A DNA stretch of 64,000 nucleotides from an uncultured Methanosarcinales archaeon (GCA_964453185.1 CAYVNN010000002.1:274308-338307); one strand, 5' to 3'; positions 4,572 to 42,872 are shown, numbered from the stretch's first letter. Numbers and translations are program-made. Notes: generated from the sequence alone by a model not told the origin.

Positions 4572-5315
4572 ATGACATTAAAATACAAAGGTGGTAATAT
4601 GGCAGATAGTCCAACATTAGATAGTATGGTTGGTGAACTTCAAGGTGGACCAGCAGGTGAAGCTCTTCAACAATATCATGATTTTATGAGTGAAGATAGA
4701 TTAAGAGCATTATCAAAAAATTGTTTTATTCCAGGTGCAGATGAATTTTATAAAACATTTGTAGCACAATTAAAAGAACAAAGTGTTGATGATGAAAAGC
4801 ATACTGTTAAAGATAAAGAAGCAGAAGTAAAAACCGCTTTAACACATGCATTAAAGTCATATTTTGGAAAGGTTAGTCCAGCTTTTCTTGAACATTTAGA
4901 AAATATTGATGAATCTGAACATTATGATGCTCTTGTTAAACACTTTGAAGATACCCATTTTGATAGAGATACTAGGAGAGGGATAAATCTGGATGCATTA
5001 ATCCTTAAACAAAATCAAAAGGCTAAGGTTGGCGAAGTAATAGAATATATGGGTAAGATGAAAGGTGATTTTGGTAAGTATGGTATGGATCATTTAAGTC
5101 AAAAAGTACACTCAAAATTTCTTGGTGCTTATAGATCACAAGATATTGCTGCAGCTTTACATGAGAAAGCTGAGGGCCAAGGTATGACATTAGAAGATCC
5201 AAGTCAATTATATACTAAAGATACAAATGATTTAATGGGTTTATCAACTTATCTTCATACAGGTAAAGGACGAATGGATCATGAACATTATGGATTAGCA
5301 CAACCTGGAAAATAA
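4572..5315 (+). CDS. Hypothetical protein with GC-richer, K-poor composition
   Basis: A long ORF (247 aa) with no recognisable motif. Its composition differs from neighbouring housekeeping genes. The true start may be at M10 (MADSPTLD). Confidence 0.4.
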   Translation: MTLKYKGGNMADSPTLDSMVGELQGGPAGEALQQYHDFMSEDRLRALSKNCFIPGADEFYKTFVAQLKEQSVDDEKHTVKDKEAEVKTALTHALKSYFGKVSPAFLEHLENIDESEHYDALVKHFEDTHFDRDTRRGINLDALILKQNQKAKVGEVIEYMGKMKGDFGKYGMDHLSQKVHSKFLGAYRSQDIAAALHEKAEGQGMTLEDPSQLYTKDTNDLMGLSTYLHTGKGRMDHEHYGLAQPGK

Positions 5316-5366
5316 CCCTAAACCTTTATATATTATCTTTCTTTTCTTTTATAATGTTGGGGTATT

Positions 5367-5945
5367 ATGAATAAAAAAAGATTAATCTCTTTAGTTTCAG
5401 TTAATATTTTATTTACAATAATAGTTATTATTCTAGTTATTATTCTATTAAAACTTAATTCTTCAGTTGAAATTCTAAAGGACAACAAAACAATAGAAAA
5501 TACAACAAATGATATAATAATAGAACAGAACATAGTGATTGAAGAACCCGAAGAAATAATTGAAGAACCAGAAGAACAAACATTAGAAATAACAGAAACA
5601 AACTTAACAGAAGAAAGTTGTGATGCTTGGATTGAAACATTAGATGAAAACAGAATAGATGCTGAACAAGATTACAATGATATTGAATATATGTACTATG
5701 AACAACAAGAAGAATTAAATGAAGCAGAAGAATATGTTCTTGAAATAGAAGCACAGATTGCAAATACAACAGATACAGAATTATTATCAATTCTTTATGA
5801 TGAATATAATGATGCAAAGGATGACTTAGACAGAGAAGAAGATCGTTTTAGAGAAGACAAATATGCACTTAAAATAGCAGACAGAGCAGTAACAGATACA
5901 TTAGATGCTTTAAGGGAAGCATATGATATATGTAGAGATATATAA
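5367..5945 (+). CDS. Membrane-anchored acidic coiled-coil protein (hypothetical)
   Basis: N-terminal TM helix LISLVSVNILFTIIVIILVIILL, followed by an E/D-rich low-complexity region that is probably coiled-coil. Confidence 0.4.
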   Translation: MNKKRLISLVSVNILFTIIVIILVIILLKLNSSVEILKDNKTIENTTNDIIIEQNIVIEEPEEIIEEPEEQTLEITETNLTEESCDAWIETLDENRIDAEQDYNDIEYMYYEQQEELNEAEEYVLEIEAQIANTTDTELLSILYDEYNDAKDDLDREEDRFREDKYALKIADRAVTDTLDALREAYDICRDI

Positions 5946-6126
5946 CATTATTGAAGCCTTTGCCCTTAAGGGCCAGTGAGCCCATTAATTTCTGCTTGCA
6001 CAACGAGGTTTAGCACAATTTTGAAATTGTATTGACATTGTGCGTAGCGAACGAAAAGGTTTCAATAAATGTACCATTACATTTTAACAAAAAACTAAGA
6101 ATTAATGAATTTTGTAAGGGTATAAA

Positions 6127-6696
6127 CTAACGTTCAACAACTTCTCCTTCTTTATCCAATCTAATTATCTTTGAGGGACTACCTTTTTTCTCTCCTTCAT
6201 ATATAATAAACTTAACTCTTGACTTAATCATTGAATCTAGATCTTCAATATTTGTCATAAAATTCATACCATGCATATTTGCACTTGTTGTTATAATTGG
6301 TTTTTCTAACTTTCTAACTATGTCAGTGAACCAATGATCTGGAAATCTTATTCCAATTGTTTCCATTCCATTATTAACTTCAGATGCAATTGCATCTTTA
6401 TTTTTTAATTTTAGAACTAATGTATAAGGTCCTGGTAATTTTTCTACCCATTCTCTTGCATTGTCGTCGACAAAACAATTCTCTAATATCCATTTTTTTG
6501 AAGGTGGTATTATTGAGAAAGGTGTATCTGTTCTTCCTTTTACATCTCTAAGTTTTTTAACTGCCTCTTTATCCTGCGCATTACATCCAATACCATATAT
6601 TGTATCTGTTGGGTAAATAAACAATGCTCCTTTCTCAATATCAAGAAGATAATCATGTAAATATACATTAAACTCATGTTTAGATATTGTTCTCAT
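6127..6696 (-). CDS. tsaC: L-threonylcarbamoyladenylate synthase, YrdC/TsaC/Sua5 family
   Basis: The YrdC motif IYPTDTIYGIGCNA is present, and the length (189 aa) fits a YrdC-only protein. Confidence 0.8.
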   Translation of the reverse strand: MRTISKHEFNVYLHDYLLDIEKGALFIYPTDTIYGIGCNAQDKEAVKKLRDVKGRTDTPFSIIPPSKKWILENCFVDDNAREWVEKLPGPYTLVLKLKNKDAIASEVNNGMETIGIRFPDHWFTDIVRKLEKPIITTSANMHGMNFMTNIEDLDSMIKSRVKFIIYEGEKKGSPSKIIRLDKEGEVVER

Positions 6697-6731
6697 GTAA
6701 AATACAAATTATTGATTACTTAAAAAGTTTT

Positions 6732-7802
6732 TCAAAACTCTGTCAACTTTTTTACACTCTGGAATGTAATTATACTTGTACTTCCTTCTGTTCCACCAGA
6801 TATTTTCTTTATAGAAACAAACTTACCTACTTTTAACTTATTTATCTTTCTATAGAATGTTTTATATGAACTCTTACCACCACTTTCTTGATATATTTTA
6901 AATAAATCCCCAATTTTCTTACCTGAATTTAATTTTATTATTTTCAAAATAAAATCTGTTTCCTGTTCTAATTCTAAATTTGCTTTTGTTGATAATTCAT
7001 CCAATTTACTAATTGCTTTATTGACATGATCAATTCTAATTGTTCTTGAGCTTTCATTTTCTGCAACAAAACCTGCTTCTTTCATTAAATGTAATCCCGA
7101 TCTAATATCTTGTAAATCAAATGTTCGTGCAGCAATTATATCAAATGATTCTTTTAACAAAACATTTGAATTAAATGCATAATCTCTTCTTTGTGCAAGG
7201 ATATCTTTTGTTTCATTTGCATTGTATTCTTTAAAATGTAATAATTCAGGTGATAATCTTGATTTAATTCTATGATCAAGATTAATTAACCACTCTCTAT
7301 AATTAGAAATTAAAACAATTGTTTTTCTATAAATATCTTCTAATAATGTATATAAAAAATCAAAATCTTCAACCTTATCTATTTCATCAAATGCAAAAAC
7401 AACATTTGTTTTATTTAATCTACTAATAACTTCTTTAAACAATTCTTGTGTTTTCTTATTCTGTATAAATTTATATCCTAATAAATCACACATTTCAACT
7501 GCAATCTTATATGTGGTGTTATGTTTCCAGCAATTGATATAGATCGGAGTTACTTCTTCATAATTTTCTTCAATTTCCTTAAATACATGCTTAATTGCTA
7601 GTGTCTTTCCAATACCTGGTTTGCCGTGTACTAATACATTCTTTCCAGTTCTACCTGTGAATAATGGTTTTATGCAGTTAGCTATGTAAAACTGCTCCTT
7701 TTCTCTATGCAGCAATAATTTCGGCTGAAAACTAAAATCTAAAGCTATTTCGTTCTTGAATATCGATTCCCCCTCTTTAAGCATTCCTTCAAATAAGCCC
7801 AT
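6732..7802 (-). CDS. cdc6: Orc1/Cdc6 replication initiator
   Basis: Walker A HGKPGIGKT and Walker B VFAFDEID, followed by a C-terminal winged-helix region. Typical archaeal Orc1/Cdc6 length and architecture. Confidence 0.85.
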   Translation of the reverse strand: MGLFEGMLKEGESIFKNEIALDFSFQPKLLLHREKEQFYIANCIKPLFTGRTGKNVLVHGKPGIGKTLAIKHVFKEIEENYEEVTPIYINCWKHNTTYKIAVEMCDLLGYKFIQNKKTQELFKEVISRLNKTNVVFAFDEIDKVEDFDFLYTLLEDIYRKTIVLISNYREWLINLDHRIKSRLSPELLHFKEYNANETKDILAQRRDYAFNSNVLLKESFDIIAARTFDLQDIRSGLHLMKEAGFVAENESSRTIRIDHVNKAISKLDELSTKANLELEQETDFILKIIKLNSGKKIGDLFKIYQESGGKSSYKTFYRKINKLKVGKFVSIKKISGGTEGSTSIITFQSVKKLTEF

Positions 7803-7842
7803 TTTATAATTGAGAAGTATATGATGTTTATATTGATTGTGC

Positions 7843-8697
7843 TTATTTTAATCTCTTTCTTTTCATAGATTCAATTTCATCATTATAATTATCAGAACTA
7901 ACTACTTTTTCGTTTGTTTCTATTTCTAATTGTTTTCTAGCAATACCTGCAACAGCCCCACCTCTTTTTGCTGTATCTTTATTTTCATTGAAACCTTGTG
8001 CATTCTTCTTTTTTGCAATCTTTGTAGTTGAAGCTTCTCCCAACATGGTAAATATTAATTCTAAATCATTCATATGATCTCTTAAATTTTCTCTTTTCAA
8101 TCCTTTATGTTTCTTGTATTCAGCAGGTGTTAAACCGAATGTTGCTTTGCTGATTTCTGCTGTTAATATTGAATATTCTTTCCCTTTTTTAACTCCTCTT
8201 TTATCCCATTCATCAGTTAATTCATCTCTTACTGCTATTCCTCTAACTCTTTTCTCAATCCAATCATCAGAATAACCTTTTGCTTTGTATAATTCTCTCA
8301 TTCGTTTTTGAGTAAGTTCAGGTTTTTCAATTTCTTGTACTCTTTCATAACCTACTTTAGCTAACCATTTTTTGAAAGGTTCTGCTTTTGGAGAAGGAAT
8401 TGATTGGATTATTCTAAAAATGCCTTCAGTATTAGCACAGTCAGTAACTCGCATTTTACCATCATCTGCGAGTAATTTCAACTGGTGACAAAATGTCACC
8501 ACTTCACTTCCTTCTTCTCTAAGTCTTTGACTAAGCTTATTCCAATATTTCCTTGATCTTTGATATTCTTGCTGATCTACTAAAATAGCAACAACATCAA
8601 TTACAGAAAAATACCATTCTTCATTATACCATTGTCTCCGAATCTTTTTGTCTTGAAATACAATTAGTGATTTATCTGATTCTTTAATGACTAACAC
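7843..8697 (-). CDS. Bro-N domain / DNA-damage-inducible protein D (DinD)-like protein, paralog 1
   Basis: An N-terminal Bro-N-like segment (IRRQWYNEEWYFSVIDVVAIL) is present. The C-terminal HKGLKRENLRDHMNDLEL...KKKNAQGF region resembles E. coli DinD (RKGLKKNQKILDHMGSTEL...). About 60% identical to the ORF at 40841..41680. Confidence 0.65.
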   Translation of the reverse strand: MLVIKESDKSLIVFQDKKIRRQWYNEEWYFSVIDVVAILVDQQEYQRSRKYWNKLSQRLREEGSEVVTFCHQLKLLADDGKMRVTDCANTEGIFRIIQSIPSPKAEPFKKWLAKVGYERVQEIEKPELTQKRMRELYKAKGYSDDWIEKRVRGIAVRDELTDEWDKRGVKKGKEYSILTAEISKATFGLTPAEYKKHKGLKRENLRDHMNDLELIFTMLGEASTTKIAKKKNAQGFNENKDTAKRGGAVAGIARKQLEIETNEKVVSSDNYNDEIESMKRKRLK

Positions 8698-8777
8698 CCC
8701 AAAAAGTTTAAAATCTTAGATATATATAAAATTTCCCAAGCATTTTCCGAATACAACAATAAAACTTCCGGATTTAT

Positions 8778-9146
8778 TTATCTAACTCTAAAACCACAAT
8801 GATTACAGAAATTACTACCTAATGCAATATGTTTTCTACAATTAGGACACACATGGAACTTAGGTTGTTGTTTGTAATAATTTTGTGTTTGTTGTGGATT
8901 TCTTCGCATTGCTTTTTGTTTCTGCATCATTACATCTCTTTGTCTTGCTTTTTCTTCTAACTTTTTTCTATGTTCATCATAGCTACTATGTTTTGGTGTT
9001 CTTAATCTAGTAAGCAAGAATTTAAATAATCCATATGCAAACATAATTATACCAATTATAACAAAAGCCCACATGTCTGTAAAGTATGAAGAAACAGTAA
9101 CAACAAGTCCAACTCCAACAAAGACTCCCCAATTAATGTTTGCCAT
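8778..9146 (-). CDS. Small membrane protein with C-terminal zinc-ribbon
   Basis: Two TM helices at the N-terminus, then CPNC...CNHC. Confidence 0.4.
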   Translation of the reverse strand: MANINWGVFVGVGLVVTVSSYFTDMWAFVIIGIIMFAYGLFKFLLTRLRTPKHSSYDEHRKKLEEKARQRDVMMQKQKAMRRNPQQTQNYYKQQPKFHVCPNCRKHIALGSNFCNHCGFRVR

Positions 9147-9191
9147 AATAGAATTTTTAGCATTAATCTATATAAATTTTACTAAACTTGT

Positions 9192-10804: not shown

Positions 10805-10835
10805 ATGACTATTTAAATAGAACTTATATATAAAC

Positions 10836-12215
10836 TTAATGTGGTATTATACCTAATCTTTTCTGTTCTTTTACTGTTAATCTTACTGCCCTATTCGGAC
10901 CTATATGTTCTTCAAGAAATTCATTATATTCTTTTAAATGTAGGGATTTTCCAGCAATATCTCTTGCTTGTTGTTGTGTTTCATGATCACCAAATTCTTC
11001 AGCCATATCACCAAATGCATAAACTTGAACAGCTAAACGGTGGATACCAGGCAATATGGTATCTTCTCCTCCTTCATATCTTCTATTTAGATCTTGCAAA
11101 GCAATTTCTACACGTTCTAAATAAGAGTCAATATTCTTTAAATGTTGATTTAAGTACTCTCCTTTTGCAACATATTCATCTCTTATTTCTTCACCTGTTT
11201 CCCATCTTCTTAATCTAATCTCTCTTCCATGCATTGGAATTTCTCTTGAATATAATCTTTCATTATAAATATACCACTCACTAACAATATATGTTCCTGA
11301 TTTATGTAAGAATTGTACTTGTGCTCCATCTGGAATTTTTTTATTTTCCCATCTTGGTTCAATTCCAGTCTGTTCTATAAACCTTGCTCTTCTTTCTTCT
11401 GTATCTGTATACCTTCTTTTTTCTTCATCTGTTGCTTCATATTCACTTACTGGTCCATCATAGTTTCCATCTCTAAATCTAAGGAGAAGATATGTGTCCA
11501 TGCCTGCAAATACACAACTTGTTAATTTTGTTAAACCAAGCATTCTATTATCTGTTCTTAAACTAAATGGAGAATTAGCAATAAACTTTTTTCTAAAACC
11601 TGTTTTAACAACAGGATCTAGTGTCCATTGTCGTCTACAAACTTCTTCTACACTAAGTTTTCTTTTTAGTGTAAATTGATTTCTATCAATTTCTGCTTCA
11701 TACAATTCATTATCTTTTAAAACATACAATGGAATTCCTAGTGGTTGTATTCCAGTTAAGATCTTAGGTAAAACATCTTTTCCTTCATCTCCAACATTAT
11801 CTGTTACATAAAATCCCATTATTGTTGGATCATCTATTACAATTTCATTATATCCACCAGTTTCATTAGCTATTGCTTTTTTTACTCTTTCTTCTAATGT
11901 TCCAATACGCATAAATGGTGTTGTTCTTTCTCTTAATGATACAGGTTTTGTTGATCCATCACCTTGAAATGCTTCAGTTATTGTTCCTCTATTAACAACC
12001 ACACCCATAGTAGACCATAAAGCACGTTTAGAACCGCCAAGAACATGAGAACATGCTGCTAATGTAGGATCAAATGCCAAGGCAATCTCTAACTTTGATC
12101 TCCAATCAACTGCTCTGTGTAAATTAGTAATAGTACTAACATCTGTCCCATTCACAATCCCATGTAAGAATATTGCATTATATCTCTGCATAACTTCTTC
12201 TACATCCATAATCAT
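10836..12215 (-). CDS. Hypothetical protein (459 aa) with atypical composition
   Basis: A long ORF with no recognisable motif. It is transcribed divergently from the MTAP-like gene. It has GC-richer codons and is K/N/I-poor relative to its neighbours. Confidence 0.4.
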   Translation of the reverse strand: MIMDVEEVMQRYNAIFLHGIVNGTDVSTITNLHRAVDWRSKLEIALAFDPTLAACSHVLGGSKRALWSTMGVVVNRGTITEAFQGDGSTKPVSLRERTTPFMRIGTLEERVKKAIANETGGYNEIVIDDPTIMGFYVTDNVGDEGKDVLPKILTGIQPLGIPLYVLKDNELYEAEIDRNQFTLKRKLSVEEVCRRQWTLDPVVKTGFRKKFIANSPFSLRTDNRMLGLTKLTSCVFAGMDTYLLLRFRDGNYDGPVSEYEATDEEKRRYTDTEERRARFIEQTGIEPRWENKKIPDGAQVQFLHKSGTYIVSEWYIYNERLYSREIPMHGREIRLRRWETGEEIRDEYVAKGEYLNQHLKNIDSYLERVEIALQDLNRRYEGGEDTILPGIHRLAVQVYAFGDMAEEFGDHETQQQARDIAGKSLHLKEYNEFLEEHIGPNRAVRLTVKEQKRLGIIPH

Positions 12216-12321: not shown

Positions 12322-13254
12322 ATGCTTGATGGATGTAGGGTTGCAGTTATTGGTGGTTCTGGTGTACATGATAGTCCAGGATTTAAAGATTTAAAATGGA
12401 GAAAAATTGATACTAGATATAGAAAGGGAGGAGATGTTTCATTAACAGATAGAGTAGTTGCTAGAATGGGTGGATTAAGAAGAGGTGTTGTTGAATATCA
12501 ATTAAGAGATGATGGTGTTATTTTTATTCCTAGACACGGACATGAAAGAAGGTATGGTCCTTGTGTTACACAATATGGAGCTAATTTAATTGCAGCAAGT
12601 ATGTTGGGAGCTAATGTTGTTGTTGCAACAAGTGCAGTTGGTTCTCTTGATGAAAATATTCCTGTTAAATCACTTATTATTCCAGATGATTATGATGATC
12701 AGACAAATAGGAATGATAATTTATATGGAGAAGGCATTGTTTTACATAGTGATTCAAAACAGGCATTTTCAGAACCATTACGGAGAGTATTGTTAGATGA
12801 ATTGGCTTATTATAGTGATAGATTTGTTCATGTTCATGAGACTGGTACTTATGTTTGTATTCCAGGCGATAGATTTGGAACAAGAGCAGAAGGCCAGAGA
12901 AGAAGATTAGAAGGTGCAAATGTAGTTGGTATGACTGCATGTCCTGAAGCTTCTATGGCTGTTCAACTTGGACTGCATTATGCTATTCTTGCTTTTGCAG
13001 TTGATAATGATTTGGATGCTAATCATGAGCAAGGTACACTAGCAATAATGAGAGAATTATCTAAATCAGATAAAGTTCCTTATGTTGTTGGAAGAATTGT
13101 TGAACAAGCAAAGTCTTTTGCACAAGATGCTCCTCCTTTGCCTCAATTGGTTGGTAATATTATCCCTGGAGATACAACTAGGATTAGACATACATATCTA
13201 AGACAAGTTGCCAGAGAACAAATTGCTAGATATTGCAAAAAGGAAGCAGCATAA
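12322..13254 (+). CDS. Purine nucleoside / 5'-methylthioadenosine phosphorylase family (PNP family 2)
   Basis: Segments align to human MTAP: VAVIGGSGV, IPRHGHERRYGPCVTQYGANLIAASMLGANVVVATSAVGSLDE and GTRAEGQRRRLEGANVVGMTACPEASMAVQLGLHYAILAFAVDND. It has an N-terminal extension and a C-terminal tail. Confidence 0.7.
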   Translation: MLDGCRVAVIGGSGVHDSPGFKDLKWRKIDTRYRKGGDVSLTDRVVARMGGLRRGVVEYQLRDDGVIFIPRHGHERRYGPCVTQYGANLIAASMLGANVVVATSAVGSLDENIPVKSLIIPDDYDDQTNRNDNLYGEGIVLHSDSKQAFSEPLRRVLLDELAYYSDRFVHVHETGTYVCIPGDRFGTRAEGQRRRLEGANVVGMTACPEASMAVQLGLHYAILAFAVDNDLDANHEQGTLAIMRELSKSDKVPYVVGRIVEQAKSFAQDAPPLPQLVGNIIPGDTTRIRHTYLRQVAREQIARYCKKEAA

Positions 13255-13259
13255 CTTAT

Positions 13260-15140
13260 TCACTTAACCAACTCAACATCATGTCCTAGGTTAATAGCAT
13301 CTACTATTACTCTTCCTGGACCTGAATTCTTTTTTATTTTTATTATTCCTTTCTTACTGATTTTTGCAGTCATGTGAAAGTTTCCATTGATTAAAATATT
13401 AACTACTTTATTTCTTGTATTGTCATCTATGTAAAGATTAACATTTTTCTTTCCTATGTCATATCTAAATTCTATTCTTTTACCTTTAGAAACATTTACT
13501 TCTAATTCTCTTATATCAATTCCAATTCCAATATTTTTCTCAATCTCAGCTATTCTTTTTCCTTGCTTACCAATAAGAGAAGCAATCTTGTGTTCTGGAA
13601 CATAAACTATGCATTTGTGGTCGTCAACAACTTCAACTTTTGCATCTTCACAATATTGTTTTATTTCTTTCTCTATCTGTCTTGAAGCTAATTTCTTCGC
13701 AGGACTAGATCCACTATCACCTGAAACAGGAATAACAACAGTTTCTTCACCATAACTATATAATTCAAACTCCAGCTTCCCACTCTCAAAATCATTTACT
13801 ACAACAATTGGTCTTGCTAGATCTGCTTCAGTCATTCCTGAGGGAACTTTAACAACCATGCTTAAACTTAATATTTTACTAACATTACCATTCTTAATAA
13901 AAATAACAGTATCAATAACTTGTGGGATAACTCCTAATTCAATCCTACCAACAAACCTTTGGATTGCATCGATTGGATTAGTTGCGTGTACTATTCCAAT
14001 GAAACCAATTCCTGCTAATCTTAAATCTGCAAACAATTTGAAATCATCAGTATTTCTCATCTCATCAAAGAATGTATGATCAGGTCTACTTAATAACAGA
14101 ATGTCATGTACTTCTTGTGCATCTCCATGACTTATTGCATATTGTGTTATTGATTCAGGTAAAACTAAATCTCTTGGTGCTTCAACAGTCTTAACAACCT
14201 TATCCATTGAAGCATAATGTTCTGCTAGTGCTGCTGCAAATGTTGACTTACCCATCCCTGGAGATCCTGCAATCAATATTCCTTCTGCTTGTTCTCCAAC
14301 TCTGGTTAATAATTTTTCAGATAATTTATATTCTTTTAATGTTAATTTTTTAACAGGTCTAACTGCTGTAATTTCCCATGCATCTGAAAAAGGAGGTCTT
14401 GTTATAACTATTCTAAACTTATCTAACTGTACAATTGTAGATCCTGGTCTTTCAATCTCAATAAAACTATCTCTTCTAACATTTGCTTCTTCAATTATCT
14501 CTCTGCTTATATCTTGAATATCTTCTCTTGTTAATTTCTTTTTACCAACATGTTCAAATTTCCAGCTTCCTGGAAAACCTTTTTTAGCAAATGGTTGGAT
14601 ATTTTCTCTTAAATGCACAGACATGCTAGTTTTATCAAAGAACTTTTCTAATTTTAATTTTTTAGCTACAGAACCAACTTCAACAAAGATTGTTTGTATA
14701 CCTTTTGCTTCAGCAACTTTAGCTTGAACTTTATCAGCTGTCATTAACACAGCTCCTTTCTCATAAGCAAACTCTCTTATTAATGAATCAATCTCACCTA
14801 ATTTTGCATTTTGTATATCATAAAGTTTTGGTCGTGTACCAGCAAAGTCCAATTTTATATTATTCTTATCACAAACTTTTCTTATACTCTTTAATTCATT
14901 TAAACCAAGATAACCTATTGCTCTGTTACTATTAGCTTGATGTTCAAGTTCAGCAATGACTGCTTCATGTATCATAATAACCTGCGGAATTAAACTTTTA
15001 TCCAATATTTTTTTAGAAACATCTCCTTCAATGATTACTGATGTATCAGGAACTAGAATCTCAACTTTCTCTTTTTTTACCATATTCTCACCTTTTTTAG
15101 CATTTAAACCAGCGCCTTGAGTCATTATCAAATTATACAT
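13260..15140 (-). CDS. PIN domain - PhoH/PilT-like ATPase - KH domain protein (COG1855 family)
   Basis: An N-terminal PIN-like motif VEILVPDTSVIIEG, Walker A GSPGMGKST, and a C-terminal KH motif LIGKQGKRIAEIEKNIG. The real start is probably an internal Met near 15083. Confidence 0.7.
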   Translation of the reverse strand: MYNLIMTQGAGLNAKKGENMVKKEKVEILVPDTSVIIEGDVSKKILDKSLIPQVIMIHEAVIAELEHQANSNRAIGYLGLNELKSIRKVCDKNNIKLDFAGTRPKLYDIQNAKLGEIDSLIREFAYEKGAVLMTADKVQAKVAEAKGIQTIFVEVGSVAKKLKLEKFFDKTSMSVHLRENIQPFAKKGFPGSWKFEHVGKKKLTREDIQDISREIIEEANVRRDSFIEIERPGSTIVQLDKFRIVITRPPFSDAWEITAVRPVKKLTLKEYKLSEKLLTRVGEQAEGILIAGSPGMGKSTFAAALAEHYASMDKVVKTVEAPRDLVLPESITQYAISHGDAQEVHDILLLSRPDHTFFDEMRNTDDFKLFADLRLAGIGFIGIVHATNPIDAIQRFVGRIELGVIPQVIDTVIFIKNGNVSKILSLSMVVKVPSGMTEADLARPIVVVNDFESGKLEFELYSYGEETVVIPVSGDSGSSPAKKLASRQIEKEIKQYCEDAKVEVVDDHKCIVYVPEHKIASLIGKQGKRIAEIEKNIGIGIDIRELEVNVSKGKRIEFRYDIGKKNVNLYIDDNTRNKVVNILINGNFHMTAKISKKGIIKIKKNSGPGRVIVDAINLGHDVELVK

Positions 15141-15236
15141 GACACCGCACTAAAAGTCGTAGGCGTTTATCTTATTTCATTTTGAGTCAGACTCGCCCTG
15201 GTTTTAATGCGTTACTAAAACCGCCGTGGTACTAAT
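15100..15236 (+). repeat. Structured intergenic repeat, copy R1 (type-1 stem gcatttaaaccag/ctggttttaatgc), with 3' tail module
   Basis: gcatttaaaccag-CGCCTTGAGTCAtTATC...cgcactaaaagtcgtaggcg...cAGACTCGCC-ctggttttaatgc. A gccgtggtacta tail follows. Confidence 0.75.
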
Positions 15237-18272: not shown

Positions 18273-19037
18273 TTAATGCTTTGAGTATAATAACTTTTCT
18301 ACATCTTCTAATTGATCATTAAAATCTTCTAATGAGTTTTGCCATCTTTCAAATAACTTATCTTCTTCATCAGCTAAACTCTTTAATCTATATAATGTAT
18401 CATTTGATATGTTTGTTTCTTCACTTAATGAAGTGGAAACATTCATAAAATCAACAAAATCAGTGATTCTTATAAAATTAAAATTTTTACCTGGAATATG
18501 TTTAAGAACTGGTTGTTTGGGTTCTTCAATTTCTTCATTTAATTCTTGCATTGGTTCTTTTTCTAATTCTTCTTTTTCTTGCATTAATGCAGGGGGTTCA
18601 TCTAATTCTTTTTCTTGATCAGGTAATGGTGCAAACACTGGTTTCTTTTCCTCTACTGGTTTTTCAACCACTGGTTCTTTAATTGGTGCAGGTTTCATAT
18701 TTGAATTATCCATAAAATGATCTTCTTCGTGCGGTACTGGTTTTTCAGGTATAGTAGTTTCTACTTGAGTTTCACTTAAATCCATTGCAGTTCCTGCTAA
18801 GTTAGGTGGTAATGGAAACTCAGGTACTTCTTGACCTGACTTACTAAGTGCTCTTGGCAATTTTGGTGTTCCACCTTCTCTTCCTTTAGGTATGGATGGA
18901 GTATCATCAAAATCTAGAGAAGAATCATGACTAAGCCCTCCACCTTTCATAAGGCTAGGCTCTTCTAATGGCTGTGCTGTATTCCCAGAACTAGCTAGAT
19001 TTGGTTCACTCTTCTTTTTTTTACTAAAAAATCCCAC
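18273..19037 (-). CDS. Hypothetical protein with N-terminal amphipathic/basic segment, Pro/Glu-rich linker and C-terminal globular domain
   Basis: MGFFSKKKK at the N-terminus, then a roughly 150-aa P/E-rich low-complexity region, then a C-terminal domain NFNFIRITDFVDFMNV...LYRLKSLADEEDKLFERW. Confidence 0.35.
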   Translation of the reverse strand: MGFFSKKKKSEPNLASSGNTAQPLEEPSLMKGGGLSHDSSLDFDDTPSIPKGREGGTPKLPRALSKSGQEVPEFPLPPNLAGTAMDLSETQVETTIPEKPVPHEEDHFMDNSNMKPAPIKEPVVEKPVEEKKPVFAPLPDQEKELDEPPALMQEKEELEKEPMQELNEEIEEPKQPVLKHIPGKNFNFIRITDFVDFMNVSTSLSEETNISNDTLYRLKSLADEEDKLFERWQNSLEDFNDQLEDVEKLLYSKH

Positions 19038-20660: not shown

Positions 20661-20679
20661 TTTATTGTTAGCACAGTTA

Positions 20680-20817
20680 GCATTTAAACCAGCGCCTTGA
20701 GTCATTATCAAATATCCACATCACATCGCACTAAAAGTCGCAGGCGTTAGTCTTGTTTCACTTTGTACCAGACTCGCCCTGGTTTAAATGCGTACTAAAA
20801 GAGCCGTTGTGGTACTA
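20680..20817 (+). repeat. Structured intergenic repeat, copy R2 (type-1 stem), between pyrI and pyrD
   Basis: Same block order as R1 and 85-90% identical to it. The stem gcatttaaaccag/ctggtttaaatgc is perfect. The tail is agagccgttgtggtacta. Confidence 0.75.
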
Positions 20818-24392: not shown

Positions 24393-25253
24393 ATGGATTT
24401 CATAGAAAAACTAAAACAAAGAACAAAAGAAGTTAATTCCATTGTTTGCATGGGCTTAGATCCAGTTATTGATAAAATTCCTTTTCCTGAAGACGAGAAA
24501 AAAGAATCTCCGGGAAGAGTTATTGCATATTTTTATCTAGACATTCTTGAAGAAATGAAAAAACAAAATGTTTTCCCAGCAATTGTCAAACCAAACATCG
24601 CATTCTATGAACAATATGGTTTTGAAGGATTACATGCTCTAAAACTTATAATTACAAAATATAAAGAAGCAGGTATTCCTATTTTATTAGATGCAAAACG
24701 TGGTGATATTGGAAAAACCTCTAGAGCATATGCAAGAGCATTGTTTGACTTTTGGGATGCAGATGCAATCACAATTGCTCCTTACATGGGTTCAGATTCT
24801 GTTAGTCCATTTTTAGAATATTGTGAACAAGGAAAAGGTGTTTATGTTTTATGTAGAACTTCAAATAAAGGAGCTATTGACATGCAAAATTTAGTTGTTG
24901 GTGATGTTCCAATTTATATGAAAACAGCTGAAAAGATTTCTAATGATTGGTTTAAGCAAGGAATTGGTGCAGTAATTGGTGCAACATATCCTAAGGAGTT
25001 GGAAGAAATCTCTAAGTTTATGCAAAACAAACAAGTTCCGTTTTTAATACCTGGTGTAGGTGCGCAAGGTGGTTCAGCAACAGAAGTTGTTAAAGCATTG
25101 AAGAACTCTGGACAAGACATAAGTATTCATAGAATTAACTCTAGCAGTGGTATAAATTATGCTTATCTTAAGAAAAACACAGACAACTATGCCAAAGCAG
25201 CAGTAGATGCACTGAAAGAGTTAAATGAAGAAATAAATAAAAATTTAATTTAA
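24393..25253 (+). CDS. pyrF: Orotidine 5'-phosphate decarboxylase (long type-2 form)
   Basis: The LDAKRGDIGKTS catalytic Asp/Lys motif and a 286-aa length. It is the last gene of the pyr cluster. Confidence 0.75.
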   Translation: MDFIEKLKQRTKEVNSIVCMGLDPVIDKIPFPEDEKKESPGRVIAYFYLDILEEMKKQNVFPAIVKPNIAFYEQYGFEGLHALKLIITKYKEAGIPILLDAKRGDIGKTSRAYARALFDFWDADAITIAPYMGSDSVSPFLEYCEQGKGVYVLCRTSNKGAIDMQNLVVGDVPIYMKTAEKISNDWFKQGIGAVIGATYPKELEEISKFMQNKQVPFLIPGVGAQGGSATEVVKALKNSGQDISIHRINSSSGINYAYLKKNTDNYAKAAVDALKELNEEINKNLI

Positions 25254-26219
25254 TTCATATGTTGTTTTTACTTTATCCCTCATTTCTCTAACATGTCTTA
25301 AAAATGCAGGTTGCATTCCAGCGTTATCTCTCAAATATTCATCCCATAATTCAACAGCTCTTCTAGCTGTTCCTCTTAAATGTTCTTCACTAGAATCATC
25401 TTTTAGGGCATTAATGTATTCTTGGACATATGTTTTAGTAGATTCCATTTCTCTTTTAGCTTGTTCATTTGCTCTAACTGGGATTGAACCATTTTCTCCA
25501 TACCTTCTTTCTATTTGCTCAACAATTCCTTGAAAATATATACCATACATTGCAATATGTCTTGCATCATCAAAGGAATCTTTGAATGCTTTTTTTATTC
25601 CACCAGCTCGTCCAGTTTTAATTCTAGTATATGTATGTAAAGATGTTTGAGCTAACTTACTTACTATGTTTGCTGCAACTGTTGCATATCTACTTACTGC
25701 TGTTTCAATTGCATGTCCTTCTATTTCTACATAAGGAAGTAAAGCTTTTCTTGGAATTAATTCTCTACATACTGCTTCAGTTTCATCCCCAAATATGAAT
25801 ACTAATTTACTTACTCCTCTTGATAATTCTGTTACTTTAATTGCTCTTCCAATTCTATTATTAATAGCATGAACATTAACTCTTCCATCTCCATCATAAA
25901 ACGAAGAAATTCTTGTTTCTAAAACATCTGCTGATGTTTCAAGAACACTTGTAGCTAATGTTGTCATTGGAACGAGTTCAGCAACAGCACTAGCTTGATA
26001 TTCTGAAACAGTTCCATCAGTAATATTTGGATAAAAACTTAATTTTCTAACAAGGTCATCTCTTATTACTTCTGCTTCAGTATCTCTATCATCTTTTGGC
26101 TTTAATTTTCCAATATATTGTTCCCATAATTTGGTTGATTTACTAAAATCTGTTTCAGCTATAGCTGCTTCTTGTAATTGTGTTTTATTTTTTCCAAATA
26201 ATATATTCCATAATCCCAT
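25245..26219 (-). CDS. Hypothetical protein (324 aa) with atypical composition
   Basis: A long ORF with no recognised motif. It is GC-richer and K-poor. Confidence 0.4.
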   Translation of the reverse strand: MGLWNILFGKNKTQLQEAAIAETDFSKSTKLWEQYIGKLKPKDDRDTEAEVIRDDLVRKLSFYPNITDGTVSEYQASAVAELVPMTTLATSVLETSADVLETRISSFYDGDGRVNVHAINNRIGRAIKVTELSRGVSKLVFIFGDETEAVCRELIPRKALLPYVEIEGHAIETAVSRYATVAANIVSKLAQTSLHTYTRIKTGRAGGIKKAFKDSFDDARHIAMYGIYFQGIVEQIERRYGENGSIPVRANEQAKREMESTKTYVQEYINALKDDSSEEHLRGTARRAVELWDEYLRDNAGMQPAFLRHVREMRDKVKTTYELN

Positions 26220-27010: not shown

Positions 27011-27117
27011 AATAGTGCCACCGCCTTGGCTCACTATCGGAATTATTTTCCAATAGCGACAAATGCTCGGATTCGTTCATCATATATTTGTATTGAATCA
27101 GAGCCGCTGTGGTACTA
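27011..27117 (+). repeat. Structured intergenic repeat, copy R6 (type-3 stem agtgccaccgcc/gccgctgtggtact; inner stem GGCTC/GAGCC)
   Basis: Block B is conserved (CGCCTTGGCTCACTATC). The 3' arm is cAGAGCCGC-tgtggtactatta, and both stems show compensatory changes relative to R1-R3. Confidence 0.65.
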
Positions 27118-35277: not shown

Positions 35278-35279
35278 CT

Positions 35280-36269: not shown

Positions 36270-36486
36270 ATCTTTGTGATATTGTACTTTTAGTATATAA
36301 AATCTATGTTTTTACAAAAAAGTATGTGTTATTATATTATAAATAAGTGTCTTGATTATTAATAATATTAATTAATATGTGAAGGAATAATATGTCTCAT
36401 TTAATCGGGTGGGGAAAATCTTTTTAAATGAGCACTCATTACTCTAAAGTAGTATTTAACAAATTTAATATTGGTGGTGAATAATA

Positions 36487-37074
36487 ATGGATGGTGGAAG
36501 TCAAAATACAAGTGGTCCGTATGGAGGAGATGTAGCTCAAAGACCTACTCTTGAAACAGTAGGTAGAATTGTTATTCAAATGTATAAACCAGCTTATTTT
36601 TCTGCAGATGGATTCAGAGAAATAACAGGAAGCCACGGTTTGGGTGGATTAGAAGCAGAACTAGTTGGTGATAAGGAGATGTTAGATAGGTTCCAAGAGG
36701 GTTCTGGTTTTGCTATGCATCACCTTGCTAAACCAGAAGTAGATATGATTATGTTACAATTATATACAACTTGGATTATGTACAAGGGTGTTCAAGGTCA
36801 TTTTCCTAATATGGAGGCAAGTTCTCCAGAAGAATGGTTTGATACTCAGGTTGAAAGGTATGTTATTAAAGGTGGTACTTTTCAATTTAATAGAAGAATA
36901 GACCCTAATGAGGAAATAACTGCTCGTATGGATGTAACTGCTTTGGAAGAAAGAGGAAGGAATGGTAATTATCACTTAGAATTCACTTACACTATAACAG
37001 GTCATGAATCAGGTAATACACATACTGGATCATATTGTATGGTGATTTTGAAGGAAGATTTAAAACAAAATTAA
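36487..37074 (+). CDS. Hypothetical protein (195 aa), atypical composition
   Basis: A long ORF that is G/T/H/Y-rich and K-poor. No known motif recognised. Confidence 0.4.
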   Translation: MDGGSQNTSGPYGGDVAQRPTLETVGRIVIQMYKPAYFSADGFREITGSHGLGGLEAELVGDKEMLDRFQEGSGFAMHHLAKPEVDMIMLQLYTTWIMYKGVQGHFPNMEASSPEEWFDTQVERYVIKGGTFQFNRRIDPNEEITARMDVTALEERGRNGNYHLEFTYTITGHESGNTHTGSYCMVILKEDLKQN

Positions 37075-37194
37075 TTTTTCTTTTCCCTTCTCTTTCATTA
37101 CCAACCAGTAATCTTATTTTCTTATCATTATGATTCCAAAACCTTTATATACTTCTCCCTAATGAATTCTCTCTGTAAAGAGGGGATAATTTTA

Positions 37195-40100: not shown

Positions 40101-40692
40101 ACTAGGTAATGTAAATCTTAAAGCTCTTGAAATCTATGATTCTGTTGAAAAAGAATATAATCGTTTATTAGATAAAAAGAATTTATTATTAAAAGAAAAA
40201 GATGTAGTTTTTGTAATGATTAATGAGATTGAAACAAAGAAAACAGAACTTTTCATGAAAACATTTGAAATAATCAATGAACACTTTAAAGAAATGTTTA
40301 AAGCAATCTCTTCAAAAGGTGAAGCATTCCTTGATCTAGAAAATCCAAAAGATCCATTGTCAGAAGGAGTCAGGATTAAAGTAAGGATTTCAGGTAAAAA
40401 GTTCTTAGATATTAGAAGTTTAAGTGGTGGAGAAAAAACAATGACTGCTTTAGCATTCATCTTTGCAATCCAGGAACATGAACCAGCATCATTCTATATC
40501 TTTGATGAAGTCGATGCAGCATTAGATAAACATAACTCAGATAAATTATCTAAATTAATCAAAAACTACACAGACAAAGCACAATACATCATTATCACAC
40601 ACAATGATGGTTTAATCTCAGAAGCAGACACATTATATGGTGTTTCAATGACTTCAAACAGCATGAGTAAAGTTGTTAGTTTGAAAGTATAA
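37195..40692 (+). CDS. smc: Chromosome segregation protein SMC
   Basis: N-terminal Walker A (GPNGSGKSN), long coiled-coil arms, a hinge, and a C-terminal signature LSGGEKTMTALAFIFAIQ plus Walker B FYIFDEVDAALD. The start is set to MTRIQKIVMKGFKSF. Confidence 0.9.
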   Translation: MTRIQKIVMKGFKSFGEKTELVFDSNFSCILGPNGSGKSNVGDALCFVLGKGSAKGMRAEKSANLIYNGGKTKNPAKSGEVSIFFDNSSKIFPADTDIIKLTRTIKNSGQSIYRINDKRRTRHEIRELLSIANIDPDGYNVILQGDIVRFVEMSTNDRRLVIEDIAGIGVYEEKKKKALKELEKVETRLNEAEIILTERKTYLKELKKERDQAAKYKELGDKINRNKATYLKARFDTRNKKIEQINKYITNHQDNIDKMQEKINKLKQDVVTNKEGVRQITKEVEQKGEKEQVEMLKVIEKLKVDVASDKNRISTCENELQRVSTRKDQLNASFSEIESKIKELSNETNEINKEKARVQKDISLIESKIQQFRKKNKLDGAEGIDKEIETIDKEAEEKQKEIQELREKQQNLLREKDKVEYQIHSIDEKINKVLEVEKQNKGEIQKLKQMKEEFKKATSELNKCLNEDSNLAAQIGNARDKLSSAQSELAKLNAKNTSIKESAALSIGIKSILDNKKKLGNVFGTVSELGKVKSKFALALEIAAGSRLKSIVVDNDKTASDCIKYLKNKKLGTATFLPLNKIKAPKEVSNIDSLKKANGVYGKAVDLVDYDNKFRNVFKYIYGSTLVVDNIDVARRIGIGSTRMVTLDGDMTELSGAMHGGFRDKKRASLGFQEKEVVEDINKNEKIVGDLTRLMDVLQKKRNENEQNITRLRTFKANLEGDIITKEKSLHLESGDLDASRNLKKDLSKQVDEYGKKLMQDNMKISACNKSLAELKIKKQQLRGRISELRNPRLIAELNTFEQKRGELKETVMTLDGNLKNINMQTKNILSPEQNNILKILKQHDKEEEGFREEIKDLKEKIKLEEVDLKEKEKLQKQFYGQFKGLFQQREKLNEIIQKLENKIIILEENIRATEGKKNTYSIENAKIKAELAGIEEEYKRYEKYPVYTNKSEEQLKKEIWEFERMVERLGNVNLKALEIYDSVEKEYNRLLDKKNLLLKEKDVVFVMINEIETKKTELFMKTFEIINEHFKEMFKAISSKGEAFLDLENPKDPLSEGVRIKVRISGKKFLDIRSLSGGEKTMTALAFIFAIQEHEPASFYIFDEVDAALDKHNSDKLSKLIKNYTDKAQYIIITHNDGLISEADTLYGVSMTSNSMSKVVSLKV

Positions 40693-40701
40693 TCTTTTCT
40701 A

Positions 40702-40840
40702 GCATTTAAACCAGCGCCTTGAGTCACTATCTAAATATTTATCAAATCGCACTAAAAAATGTTGCGGTAGTAATATTATTTCTTAGAATCAGACTCGCCC
40801 TGGTTTAAATGTACTATTTATCAGAGCCGTTGTAGTATTA
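40702..40840 (+). repeat. Structured intergenic repeat, copy R3 (type-1 stem), between smc and dinD-like paralog 2
   Basis: gcatttaaaccag-CGCCTTGAGTCACTATC...cgcactaaaaaatgttgcg...cAGACTCGCC-ctggtttaaatg. The tail is cagagccgttgtagtatta. Confidence 0.75.
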
Positions 40841-41680
40841 TTATTTTAACTTCTTTTTATCTTTATTTTTTAAATAATTATCTTTAGATATAATTGATTC
40901 TCCTAAATTATTTTCTAAATCTTTTCTTGTTCTTTTTGCAATATTTCCACCTTTCTTAGCAGAATCTTTACATTCATCAAATCCTTGGGAATCTTTTTTC
41001 TTTGTTATGTCTGTAGTTGCTTTTTCTCCAATCATGTTTAAGATCAATTCCCAATCAGTCATGTGATCTCTTAAGTTTTGATTTGGTCTTTTTAGTCCTT
41101 TGTAATTCTTATATTCTCCTACTGTTTTTCCAAATGTAGCTTTACTAATTTCATTTGTTAATATTGCAAACTCTTTGCCTTCCTTAACATTTCTATTCTT
41201 CCATTCTTCTGTTAAATCTTGCCGTATTGCAATTCCTCTTAACCTTTTATCTATCCATTCCTTTGGATAACCTTTAAGTTCGTAATATTTTTTAATTCTA
41301 TCTTGTCCTAATTCAGGATTTTCTATTTCTTCAATTCTTTCATATCCAATCTGAGCTAACCATTGTTTAAATGGCTCTGCTTTCTTAGAAGGAATTGATT
41401 GAATAATTCTAAACATAGATTTAGTATTAGCACAGTCTGTAAGTCTCATTTTACCATCTTCTGCTTGTAGTTTCAACTGTACGATTATATCGTACACTTC
41501 AAATCCTTCTTCTTTTAATGTCCTTTTTAAATCAGACCAATACCTTTTTGGAATAGAACTTACTTCTAATGCTGTAACTACATCTACTACAGAAAAATAC
41601 CATTCATCATTATGCCATGTCCTTCTTATGTTTTTACCTTGAAAAACTACTAGTTTATTGACTTCCCCCATAAAAACCAC
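40841..41680 (-). CDS. Bro-N / DinD-like protein, paralog 2
   Basis: About 60% identical over its full length to the ORF at 7843..8697. The shared motifs are the same: NIRRTWHNDEWYFSVVDVV and YKGLKRPNQNLRDHMTDWELI. Confidence 0.65.
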   Translation of the reverse strand: MVFMGEVNKLVVFQGKNIRRTWHNDEWYFSVVDVVTALEVSSIPKRYWSDLKRTLKEEGFEVYDIIVQLKLQAEDGKMRLTDCANTKSMFRIIQSIPSKKAEPFKQWLAQIGYERIEEIENPELGQDRIKKYYELKGYPKEWIDKRLRGIAIRQDLTEEWKNRNVKEGKEFAILTNEISKATFGKTVGEYKNYKGLKRPNQNLRDHMTDWELILNMIGEKATTDITKKKDSQGFDECKDSAKKGGNIAKRTRKDLENNLGESIISKDNYLKNKDKKKLK

Positions 41681-41828
41681 TATGTATAATTAATATAAAA
41701 AATGAATTATTTTAAGCTTAAATCTTATTATCAGAGTGCATAATTTGTAATTTTCAATATTTCCTTTACCCAGAAGTAATCAAAAGAATAAACCTTTATA
41801 AACGTATATTCATTCCTTTATTATTAAC

Positions 41829-42872
41829 ATGAGAAGAACATTATTATTGACAAGTCTTTTATTTGGATCTGCGCAGGCAGCAGAACCTTCTTTTCTTAGA
41901 CCTCTTGAGTTAGAACAACAAGTTTTATCTGATCCTACAACTTCAGTTGTACCAGCAGTACAATCTTCTCTTGAATTTGCTCAAAGAATTGAAGAAACAC
42001 TTAGAGCTCAACAAGTATTTAGTTGGGAAGCCGTTGCAGGATATCAAACATGTGAAGGGGTAGTTTTACAAATCCAACAATTTGATCCTCATTCACCAAG
42101 TCACATTTCATTGTATAGAATTGTGAATAGAAATAATGACCCACAAGATATAAATAATTTACACGTTTTAAAATATGATCCTGATTCAATTGATCCAACT
42201 TTATTTCATCCAGTCCTTGGTTACAGTGGGAATTATTTAGAATTACAAGAACCTCTAAAAGCTAGAGCAATAGCTTCTAGATATGAAATCTTTTTAGATG
42301 GTTTAAGGACAACAGTATATGAAATTAATTCAGACCTTAAAGAAAGAAGATTAGCATTGCTTCGTGAAGAAGATATTGACTATGCTAGGGCAGTTGGTCA
42401 AATTGACGAACAACATAAAACTTTTGAAGATGTTTTTCATGATTATTTTACCAATCTTAGAGGTTTAGAACATACTTCTCAATTATCTGATAAAACATAT
42501 AAAAAAACACGTTATTCTCATGGTTGGAAACTAACACCAAGAAGAAGTTCTCCTTGTAGAGAAACTGCAAAGAACGCTATGATTATGAAAAATCTTGCAG
42601 GAATTGATCGTGATGAATATGTAACTGTTATGTATGCTGATGGAGATAATTATGTTGTTTATAATGAAGCAACTGGTTTAACATATGACATTGAACAAAG
42701 AAGGGATAAACCTATTCAAGATATTTTACCAACAATACTTAGAAGACTAGAGGGACCTGTTCTTTTAGATGAGAGTATTTTTCCAGAGGGATTATCTACA
42801 AGACTTCCAAAATCAACTAGTATTCGACCACTAGGTTCTGAGAATTACAGATTTCTTTTATTAGAAGATTAA
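41829..42872 (+). CDS. Secreted hypothetical protein with bacterial-type signal peptide
   Basis: MRRTLLLTSLLFGSAQA|AEP is a classic Sec signal with an AxA cleavage site. The composition is atypical, and no known domain was recognised. Confidence 0.4.
   Translation: MRRTLLLTSLLFGSAQAAEPSFLRPLELEQQVLSDPTTSVVPAVQSSLEFAQRIEETLRAQQVFSWEAVAGYQTCEGVVLQIQQFDPHSPSHISLYRIVNRNNDPQDINNLHVLKYDPDSIDPTLFHPVLGYSGNYLELQEPLKARAIASRYEIFLDGLRTTVYEINSDLKERRLALLREEDIDYARAVGQIDEQHKTFEDVFHDYFTNLRGLEHTSQLSDKTYKKTRYSHGWKLTPRRSSPCRETAKNAMIMKNLAGIDRDEYVTVMYADGDNYVVYNEATGLTYDIEQRRDKPIQDILPTILRRLEGPVLLDESIFPEGLSTRLPKSTSIRPLGSENYRFLLLED

Follow-up and report, generated by a model that had tools for sequence, protein, structure and literature searches.

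Genes that reach a genome from a donor of different base composition start off the host's compositional equilibrium and relax towards it. This amelioration is treated as established in the passages of PMC4462595 that cite Lawrence and Ochman (1997), where it is described as unequal over codon positions, position 3 relaxing first while positions 1 and 2 lag. Lateral gene transfer into DPANN genomes is likewise documented (PMC8204110). Here we analyzed seven open reading frames (ORFs) scattered along a 64,000-nucleotide stretch of archaeal DNA (GCA_964453185.1, CAYVNN010000002.1:274308-338307; hereafter the window), which a preliminary description had flagged as ORFans sharing an atypical composition. 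We regard them, with moderate confidence, as heterogeneous accessory genes that were acquired from GC-richer donors and are in a late stage of amelioration.

The flagged genes resemble ameliorating genes in that their composition is off the host equilibrium, unequally over the codon, but differ in that position 3 and the choice among six-fold synonymous codons are fully equilibrated, slightly past the native mean, and only amino-acid content retains the signal. Because of this equilibration, ordinary nucleotide or codon-usage detectors would miss them. As in the lateral acquisitions described for DPANN archaea, some of them of families common to CPR/Patescibacteria (PMC8204110 and works cited there), they are scattered genes of a small-genome woesearchaeote that are absent from relatives, and the family of one of them, 10836..12215, occurs in Patescibacteria and on an archaeal contig; however, most of the genes have no detectable homologue, and the MTAP-like 12322..13254 appears archaeal in type, not bacterial. 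With genomic islands and integrated elements they share accessory gene content, atypical composition and variable sites, but they occur as singles or pairs over 52 kb, with native-type promoters and without an integrase, a tRNA target or flanking repeats. The direction is also the reverse of the more familiar one, that of AT-rich islands in GC-richer bacteria, since here GC-type genes reside in an AT-rich host.

The window and the flagged genes

The window has a GC content of about 30% and carries archaeal housekeeping genes, including the L6...L30-L15-SecY ribosomal-protein cluster, Orc1/Cdc6, SMC, SerRS, PheRS, a pyrimidine operon, PPDK and sugar-nucleotide genes. Its SerRS was at most 62% identical to that of any species representative, with metagenome-assembled genomes of Candidatus Woesearchaeota as top matches, and its SecY at most 76% identical to that of any metagenome contig, so these sequences place the source organism in a woesearchaeal (DPANN) lineage that is fairly isolated. 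The 19 contigs fetched for four window proteins, which came from several samples and assemblies (L001-L019), all matched the window at 99.9-100% identity over up to 21 kb; because this identity recurs across contigs and samples, the window stems from a real clonal population rather than from a chimeric assembly. The clonality of this population is itself striking.

The preliminary description had placed the flagged ORFs within positions 4572-42872. All seven are present, six inside that range and the seventh, 56193..56804, outside it, and they are unrelated to one another, with no paralogues among them. In the list below, equivalent GC is the value obtained by inverting regressions of protein composition on GC over 104 related archaeal loci, R/(K+R) is the arginine share of arginine plus lysine, and GC3 is the GC at third codon positions.

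4572..5315, + strand: 247 aa, function unassigned; equivalent GC 0.47, R/(K+R) just 0.23; stand-alone, with a TATA box at -25

10836..12215, - strand: 459 aa, member of a widespread uncharacterised family; in a variable slot between PIN and SerRS

12322..13254, + strand: 310 aa, predicted MTAP-family nucleoside phosphorylase; equivalent GC 0.61, the highest of the set; divergent neighbour of 10836..12215 in the same slot

25245..26219, - strand: 324 aa, function unassigned; equivalent GC 0.49, lowest corrected GC3 (z=-3.1); convergent with pyrF

36487..37074, + strand: 195 aa, function unassigned; just upstream of SMC; the sole flagged gene without low GC3

41829..42872, + strand: 347-aa orphan with a putative N-terminal Sec-type signal peptide; located, with a Bro-N gene, between SMC and a glycosyltransferase gene

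56193..56804, + strand: 203-aa orphan with a hydrophobic lipobox-like N-terminus (...MLGC) and a Pro/Ala-rich linker; between DUF106/EMC3 and L34e, opposite to them in strand, within the ribosomal-protein cluster

Amino-acid content and synonymous codon usage

The seven flagged ORFs were compared with the other 57 of the 64 non-overlapping window genes. GC was higher in the flagged ORFs at the first (0.50 vs 0.41) and second (0.39 vs 0.30) codon positions. K/N/I made up a share of 0.141 against 0.264, and D/E/G/T/H/R a share of 0.384 against 0.299, as the preliminary description had it for both residue groups. FYMINK (the share of F, Y, M, I, N and K) was 0.245 vs 0.364, GARP (G, A, R and P) 0.262 vs 0.183, R/(K+R) 0.59 vs 0.24 (p=5e-4) and the isoelectric point (pI) 5.8 vs 9.0, while D+E was not different (p=0.31). 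A halophile-type adaptation was rejected, given that D+E was unchanged and that the shift was from Lys to Arg and towards GARP residues.

The GC-richer codons of the same description were GC-richer at positions 1 and 2 only. GC3 was lower in the flagged ORFs, not higher (0.119 vs 0.162), and the deficit remained when amino-acid content was corrected for, with negative z-scores in six of the seven (Mann-Whitney p=0.003). Six-fold codon families are where donor codons persist longest, and the choice within them was native (AGA for Arg, 79 vs 84%, p=0.33; Leu, p=0.50; Ser, p=0.41). C-ending NNY codons were slightly scarcer (AAC 7 vs 17%, GAC 7 vs 14%), a pattern that suggests compatibility with weaker translational selection. 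Since GC3 is low and synonymous choice native, the anomaly is confined to amino-acid content, that is, to codon positions 1 and 2. The per-gene check of GC3, codon usage and amino-acid composition that had been proposed for these genes was thus borne out for amino acids, with codon usage native and GC3 shifted the other way. The p-values given for the flagged set are post hoc and circular, the ORFs having been picked as outliers, and for this reason an external baseline was built from related archaeal loci.

Over the 104 loci, pooled protein composition followed locus GC closely (FYMINK r=-0.87, GARP r=0.89, KNI r=-0.88, GC3 r=0.98). The median equivalent GC of the unflagged window genes was 0.30, which is the true value, and the flagged ORFs had equivalent GC values of 0.47-0.61, with a GC3 corresponding to about 0.26; the spread was smaller among the flagged ORFs (standard deviation, SD, about 0.06) than among native genes (SD 0.09). 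In the loci of 24 AT-rich relatives, FYMINK values <=0.272 were found in 7 of 391 ORFs, against 9 of 64 window genes (Fisher p=6e-5); when R/(K+R)>=0.4 was also demanded, the counts were 2/391 and 7/64 (p=2e-5), an enrichment of about 20-fold. The relatives' seven low-FYMINK ORFs were SecY, a ribosomal protein, an S-layer-like protein, a His-rich secreted protein and similar ones, mostly with low Arg usage. The far greater rarity of low-FYMINK, high-Arg ORFs in these loci supports the oddity of the window genes as real, in agreement with the residue bias first described.

The flagged set is nevertheless an extreme tail and not a sharply separate class, because two unflagged genes are among the nine lowest FYMINK values (<=0.272) and the distribution runs on past that value (0.282, 0.287 and onward). 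These two genes are:

83..1270, + strand: 395-aa free-standing LAGLIDADG-like ORF; FYMINK 0.246, R/(K+R) 0.60, GC3 0.121; candidate LAGLIDADG_3 match at E=7e-4, below cutoff

18273..19037, - strand: 254 aa, Pro/Glu-rich; borderline, with FYMINK 0.260 but R/(K+R) 0.17

The low FYMINK of 18273..19037 is probably explained by low complexity, as its R/(K+R) is so small. The exact sequence of 83..1270 was absent from the protein collection, perhaps owing to a different start call.

Promoters and variable intergenic slots

All seven flagged genes are stand-alone units, with upstream spacers of 106-484 bp against a median of 33 bp for the others. Six of the seven are preceded by a TTTA[TA]A box, placed at -25 to -58, as in neighbouring genes, and the frequencies of TATA boxes and Shine-Dalgarno motifs did not differ from those of other genes with a spacer >=60 bp (p=0.38 and p=0.19, respectively), so nothing points to a promoter regime of their own. 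The second origin proposed in the preliminary description, a lineage-specific set under a distinct expression regime, is not supported by these ordinary frequencies or by the lack of relationship among the genes; the sole hint of it is the scarcity of C-ending NNY codons.

Synteny was informative for four flagged genes (10836..12215, 12322..13254, 41829..42872 and 56193..56804), and no relative's locus covers the sites of 4572..5315, 25245..26219 and 36487..37074. The gene order TGase-PIN-SerRS-Orc1 is common to relatives. In L020 and L022, PIN lies next to SerRS at a distance of 37 and 78 bp, respectively, and the slot is empty. In L021, L024, L028 and L030 the slot holds cargo of 1.7-3.4 kb that is unrelated from one relative to the next (a TrmB-like gene accompanied by a PEP-utilizer-like ORF; two ORFs lacking annotation; a HisKA-like ORF; a 506-aa ORF, also unannotated). 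The window has the MTAP-like 12322..13254 and 10836..12215 at this place. The order in L028 is PIG-L, glycosyltransferase and SMC, the last two abutting, and the window has a Bro-N gene and 41829..42872 between them.

At the third site, 20 of 32 relatives have DUF106/EMC3 next to L34e (<=200 bp), a further one shows a gap of 282 bp, and the other 11 have unrelated cargo in between; the gap in the window is 781 bp and holds 56193..56804 on the opposite strand. The cargo in five relatives (L113, L115, L117, L118 and L123; about 12.2-12.9 kb per locus) is an opposite-strand ORF of ~160 aa with a class-III (pilin-type) signal sequence (KKGVSPLIATVLLIAFAVALG...), in the position and orientation of 56193..56804 and with zero detectable sequence similarity to it. 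Other cargo at this site comprised a 110-aa ORF read as HTH-like (two relatives) and a His-rich protein of ~370 aa (three relatives). None of the relatives' slot cargo resembles the flagged genes. Because the same slots are empty or filled with unrelated cargo in relatives, these gene orders mark the three slots as permissive sites repeatedly used by accessory genes.

Two Bro-N genes lie in or near these regions:

40841..41680, - strand: Bro-N domain gene of native composition, beside 41829..42872 and between SMC and the glycosyltransferase gene

7843..8697, - strand: second Bro-N gene, also of native composition, a 57% identical paralogue of 40841..41680

Bro-N genes are usually tied to viruses and mobile elements. 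No match to 7843..8697 was found between SerRS and Orc1/Cdc6 in the relatives L028, L030 and L071.

Annotation of the individual genes

No flagged protein had a relative in 2.1 Mb of related archaeal loci, PHROGs and PADLOC gave zero matches for the flagged ORFs, and the six of them without an assigned function had no tblastn match in 72,556 plasmid or 50,697 phage records. The term ORFan does not fit 10836..12215, with its 297 homologous clusters, or 12322..13254, and applies at most to the remaining five, of which 41829..42872 and 56193..56804 were searched at word-index sensitivity. The statement that none of the seven had an assignable function likewise fails for 12322..13254.

This last protein matched PF01048 (PNP_UDP_1) with E=2e-23 and 83.5 bits, against a cutoff of 25.1, and its top PDB matches were MTAPs (1e-30 to 1e-20 over residues 6-254), headed by the entries 2a8y, 1wta and 1v4n, which we take to be crenarchaeal. 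It thus resembles MTAPs of the trimeric/hexameric purine nucleoside phosphorylase superfamily in its Pfam score, above the gathering score, and in its PDB matches, but differs from them in falling well under the NCBIfam equivalog cutoffs (161 bits for TIGR01694, whose cutoff is 275 bits) and in a C-terminal stretch of ~50 residues without match, the alignment ending near residue 260 of 310. These similarities assign 12322..13254 to the MTAP superfamily/family; its equivalog status and substrate specificity are tentative.

An exhaustive HMMER search with 10836..12215 recovered 297 cluster representatives (50% identity) at E<=1e-3, with a best identity of 32% and many full-length matches. Most family members are ~600 aa long and have an extra N-terminal region of ~160 residues that is absent from the 459-aa window copy. 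The family alignment showed G71, G77, A82, D86, N123, E124 and G238 to be invariant and H18 near-invariant, and no Pfam domain was found over the homologous region in ten homologues scanned. The AlphaFold model (predicted local distance difference test score, pLDDT, 73.7) predicts a confident N-terminal alpha/beta domain and a C-terminal helical bundle, and neither PDB nor BFVD yielded a significant fold match to it. Among the members, one carries the annotation hypothetical protein from a Patescibacteria group bacterium, one adjoins RNase Y and HU (a bacterial context), and one, P0101, is fused to HTH_3 domains; the best match lies on a 535-kb contig that can be taken as archaeal because it also carries ribosomal protein L15e. 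By these annotations and contexts the family occurs in Patescibacteria and DPANN-like archaea. FYMINK ranges from 0.21 to 0.37 in the family across genomes, the window copy being at the median (0.26), and since values up to 0.37 are tolerated elsewhere, function does not force the composition of this gene. A functional pairing with the adjoining MTAP-like gene was unsupported, as no phosphorylase lies beside the homologues P0029-P0032.

The genes 4572..5315, 25245..26219 and 36487..37074 had no match in Pfam, NCBIfam, PHROGs, PADLOC, PDB, the plasmid and phage records or the 2.1 Mb of relatives' DNA, and the 90% identity cluster of 4572..5315 has one member. In contig L005, a single-gap difference was observed at positions 649-1246 (window ~36487-37074), with two ORFs (70 and 119 aa) called in place of the 195-aa ORF, which is either an assembly error or a frameshifted population variant.

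The N-terminus of 41829..42872, MRRTLLLTSLLFGSAQA followed by AEP after the presumed cleavage site, has a positive n-region, a hydrophobic h-region and an A-x-A cleavage motif (read by eye), and is a putative signal peptide. At word-index sensitivity only the protein itself was recovered among 5.8 billion proteins, and a pattern scan of IMG/VR returned nothing. For 56193..56804, the protein search at the same sensitivity recovered only its own cluster, and a single-sequence AlphaFold model was unusable (pLDDT 41). An OmpA-like domain had been ascribed to this protein. Its C-terminal 123 residues had zero Pfam matches even at E<=10; the top PDB match, 6u83_A ('outer membrane associated protein'), does span the whole C-terminal part, including S..RA.AV..Y, but with a non-significant E=0.7, so similarity to the OmpA C-terminal-like (peptidoglycan-associated) domain is a weak lead only.

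The flagged genes do not form one system. The predicted functions differ, comprising an MTA/purine-salvage phosphorylase, an unknown family member shared by the candidate phyla radiation (CPR) and DPANN, two possibly exported or membrane-anchored orphans and three presumably cytoplasmic orphans.

Origin of the flagged genes

Composition is off that of the host in all seven ORFs, and four of them (10836..12215, 12322..13254, 41829..42872 and 56193..56804) are absent at the syntenic position in relatives. Donor-like synonymous usage was not found, GC3 being below native and six-fold choice native, which excludes recent transfer. The genes are scattered singly, and there was no sign of an island or integrated element: no contiguous block, integrase, tRNA or att site, flanking direct repeats, or PHROGs or PADLOC match. 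The window held no tRNA, integrase or Rfam RNA, the result for integrases being from Pfam annotations of neighbouring genes.

We propose that an AT-rich woesearchaeal lineage would have acquired these genes singly or in pairs, from GC-richer donors, once the clade was already AT-rich, and that they would have landed in permissive intergenic slots among conserved genes. Silent sites, including six-fold codon choice, would since have reached the AT-biased equilibrium of the host, each gene having a native-type promoter, while purifying selection would so far have preserved donor-type amino acids (Arg over Lys; Ala, Gly, Pro, Thr and His up; Ile, Asn and Lys down). Amelioration would then be at a late stage, with codon positions 1 and 2 trailing position 3. 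The signature consists of near-neutral exchanges that track GC (Arg for Lys; A/G/P/T up; I/N/K down), which argues for mutational history rather than function. With silent sites and the choice among six-fold codons fully native, the transfers are not recent, and divergence from the nearest sampled relative is deep enough many times over to make silent-site equilibration plausible. The relatives nearest by SecY (L103-L106, L108, L109 and L112; 65-76% identity) have a locus GC of 0.30-0.34, so the clade has long been AT-rich and genes resident over that time should have converted; a recent AT drift of the whole lineage that spared protected genes was rejected, the closest relatives being equally AT-rich. 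The compositional pattern, the native synonymous usage and the variable slots of four genes are observations; gain of the genes here, as against loss in the relatives, the GC of the donors and the age of the transfers are inferred. Horizontal acquisition, the first origin put forward in the preliminary description, is therefore retained on the strength of the four genes in variable slots, of amino acids of a 47-61% GC type and of the AT-rich relatives, though not as a recent event, the silent sites being native.

Several points weigh against acquisition from GC-richer donors. The searches pointed to no donor, and five of the seven have no detectable homologue, which is unexpected of genes from ordinary GC-richer donors (41829..42872 and 56193..56804 at word-index sensitivity; 4572..5315, 25245..26219 and 36487..37074 in the family, PDB, plasmid, phage and relatives' collections only). 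No hallmarks of mobile elements were found (tRNA, integrase, or matches in PHROGs, PADLOC, plasmid and phage records). The synteny covers four of the seven genes, and at the SMC/glycosyltransferase site it comes from one relative; moreover, the relatives are distant (SerRS 62% and SecY 76% at best), so loss in them is possible. The R/(K+R) of 4572..5315 (0.23) makes it a poorer fit, and the 391-ORF baseline is centred on conserved anchor genes, so that accessory genes are under-sampled.

The genes could instead be native, vertically inherited and lineage-specific, with an amino-acid content set by function in exported, surface, partner-interacting or acidic proteins, which we consider rather unlikely. 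The five genes without homologues are what fast-evolving lineage-specific genes would give, two N-termini are of export type, the pI is acidic, silent sites and promoters are fully native, and predictions place many DPANN-specific families in the membrane or outside the cell (PMC8204110), which we count in favour of such an origin. However, near-neutral exchanges that track GC (Arg vs Lys; A/G/P vs I/N) make up most of the difference and D+E is unchanged, fast evolvers in an AT-rich genome should gain FYMINK residues and not lose them, just two of the seven proteins look exported, the 10836..12215 family is FYMINK-rich in other genomes, and four genes occupy slots that are empty in relatives. 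It seems more improbable still that there is no common cause, each gene in the tail of a continuous distribution being an outlier for its own reason (a Gly/Ala/Val-rich enzyme, low-complexity linkers, a signal peptide). FYMINK is indeed continuous beyond 0.272, with RpiB, PPDK, SecY and transaldolase just behind, tests on a pre-chosen set are circular, 56193..56804 has its Pro/Ala-rich linker and 18273..19037 is of low complexity; but the nine lowest-FYMINK genes are all accessory or unannotated save the MTAP-like one, the combination of low FYMINK and high Arg is about 20-fold enriched over the 391 ORFs of AT-rich relatives, and an independent property, location in a variable slot, coincides for four genes.

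Delivery as cargo of viruses or mobile elements of the lineage, together with Bro-N and LAGLIDADG-type genes, would account for the Bro-N gene adjoining 41829..42872 in a slot that is closed in L028, for the second Bro-N copy in another slot and for the LAGLIDADG-like ORF of the same composition. We find it highly doubtful, given the lack of PHROGs, PADLOC, phage (50,697) and plasmid (72,556) record matches, the empty IMG/VR scan for 41829..42872 and the lack of an integrase, tRNA target or flanking direct repeat; besides, the Bro-N genes are native in composition and hence have no history in common with their flagged neighbours. An artefact (spurious ORFs, wrong frames, a chimeric assembly or GC-richer contamination), for which nothing speaks save the atypical composition itself, is effectively refuted: the ORFs run for 195-459 codons although stops are frequent in a genome of 30% GC, their GC falls from position to position as in real coding frames (GC1>GC2>GC3), GC3 and codon choice are native, the same arrangement recurs at 99.9-100% identity in independently assembled contigs from several samples, and 10836..12215 and 12322..13254 have clear homologues.

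Within the acquisition of the genes from GC-richer sources, capture of the whole cohort from one partner, for example the host of a presumably episymbiotic woesearchaeote, is a slim prospect; the scatter in equivalent GC of the flagged genes (SD about 0.06), being under that of native genes (SD 0.09), is compatible with a single source.

Other features of the window

A seven-copy intergenic element of ~125 nt was observed at 15091-15218, 20671-20799, 27016-27117, 40693-40819, 44036-44160, 44887-45002 and 47731-47860. Its GC is 0.40-0.43 in the two copies measured, vs 0.30 for the genome, and all seven copies are in + orientation, whatever the strand of the neighbouring gene. The conserved ends read TAGCATTTAAACCAGCGCCTTGAGTCA...CAGACTCGCCCTGGTTTAAATGC, and two folded copies gave a long predicted hairpin (z -2.8 to -3.6); RNAalifold predicted 24 pairs, 12 of them with compensatory double changes, and six wobble pairs fit the + strand vs one for the - strand. 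Four copies begin 8-17 nt past a stop codon, and four of the seven lie among - strand genes, for which reason a simple terminator role was rejected. There was no Rfam match and no copy in 160 relatives' loci, and the two exact 18-mer matches in IMG/VR covered only ~20-30 nt, which is at chance level. The element may be a structured small RNA, a 3' element or a repeat resembling miniature inverted-repeat transposable elements. A tie to the flagged genes was unsupported, as just one of the seven copies borders an insertion, and the repeat may be a more novel item than the flagged genes.

The TrmB-family regulator at 49564-50379 is 79-82% identical to its counterparts in the relatives L152 and L112, whose SecY is only 61-65% identical, and its corrected GC3 is among the highest in the window (z=+2.7). 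This reflects either unusual conservation of the regulator or its exchange among Woesearchaeota. An unannotated K-rich ORF of 151 aa at 55253-55708, with weak KOW and Ribosomal_L14e matches and orthologues after L34e in 30 relatives, is probably ribosomal protein L14e. Neither adk nor cmk, both customary in the archaeal ribosomal-protein cluster, was noticed in this stretch of it.

Implications

The flagged genes are best read as an instance of a known phenomenon, incomplete amelioration, and reveal no new system or mechanism. They indicate that acquired genes in very AT-rich reduced genomes can escape detectors based on GC, GC3 or codon usage, while amino-acid content (the Arg/Lys ratio, FYMINK and GARP) is still telling, and calibrating composition against GC over relatives offers a simple route to listing such genes. 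The two predicted exported orphans and the 10836..12215 family member make up a short list of lineage-specific DPANN candidates for partner interaction. If the cohort did come from a single partner, its frozen amino-acid composition would be a fingerprint of the host genome and could help to identify the host, and 41829..42872, 56193..56804 and 10836..12215 would be candidates for host-interaction functions.

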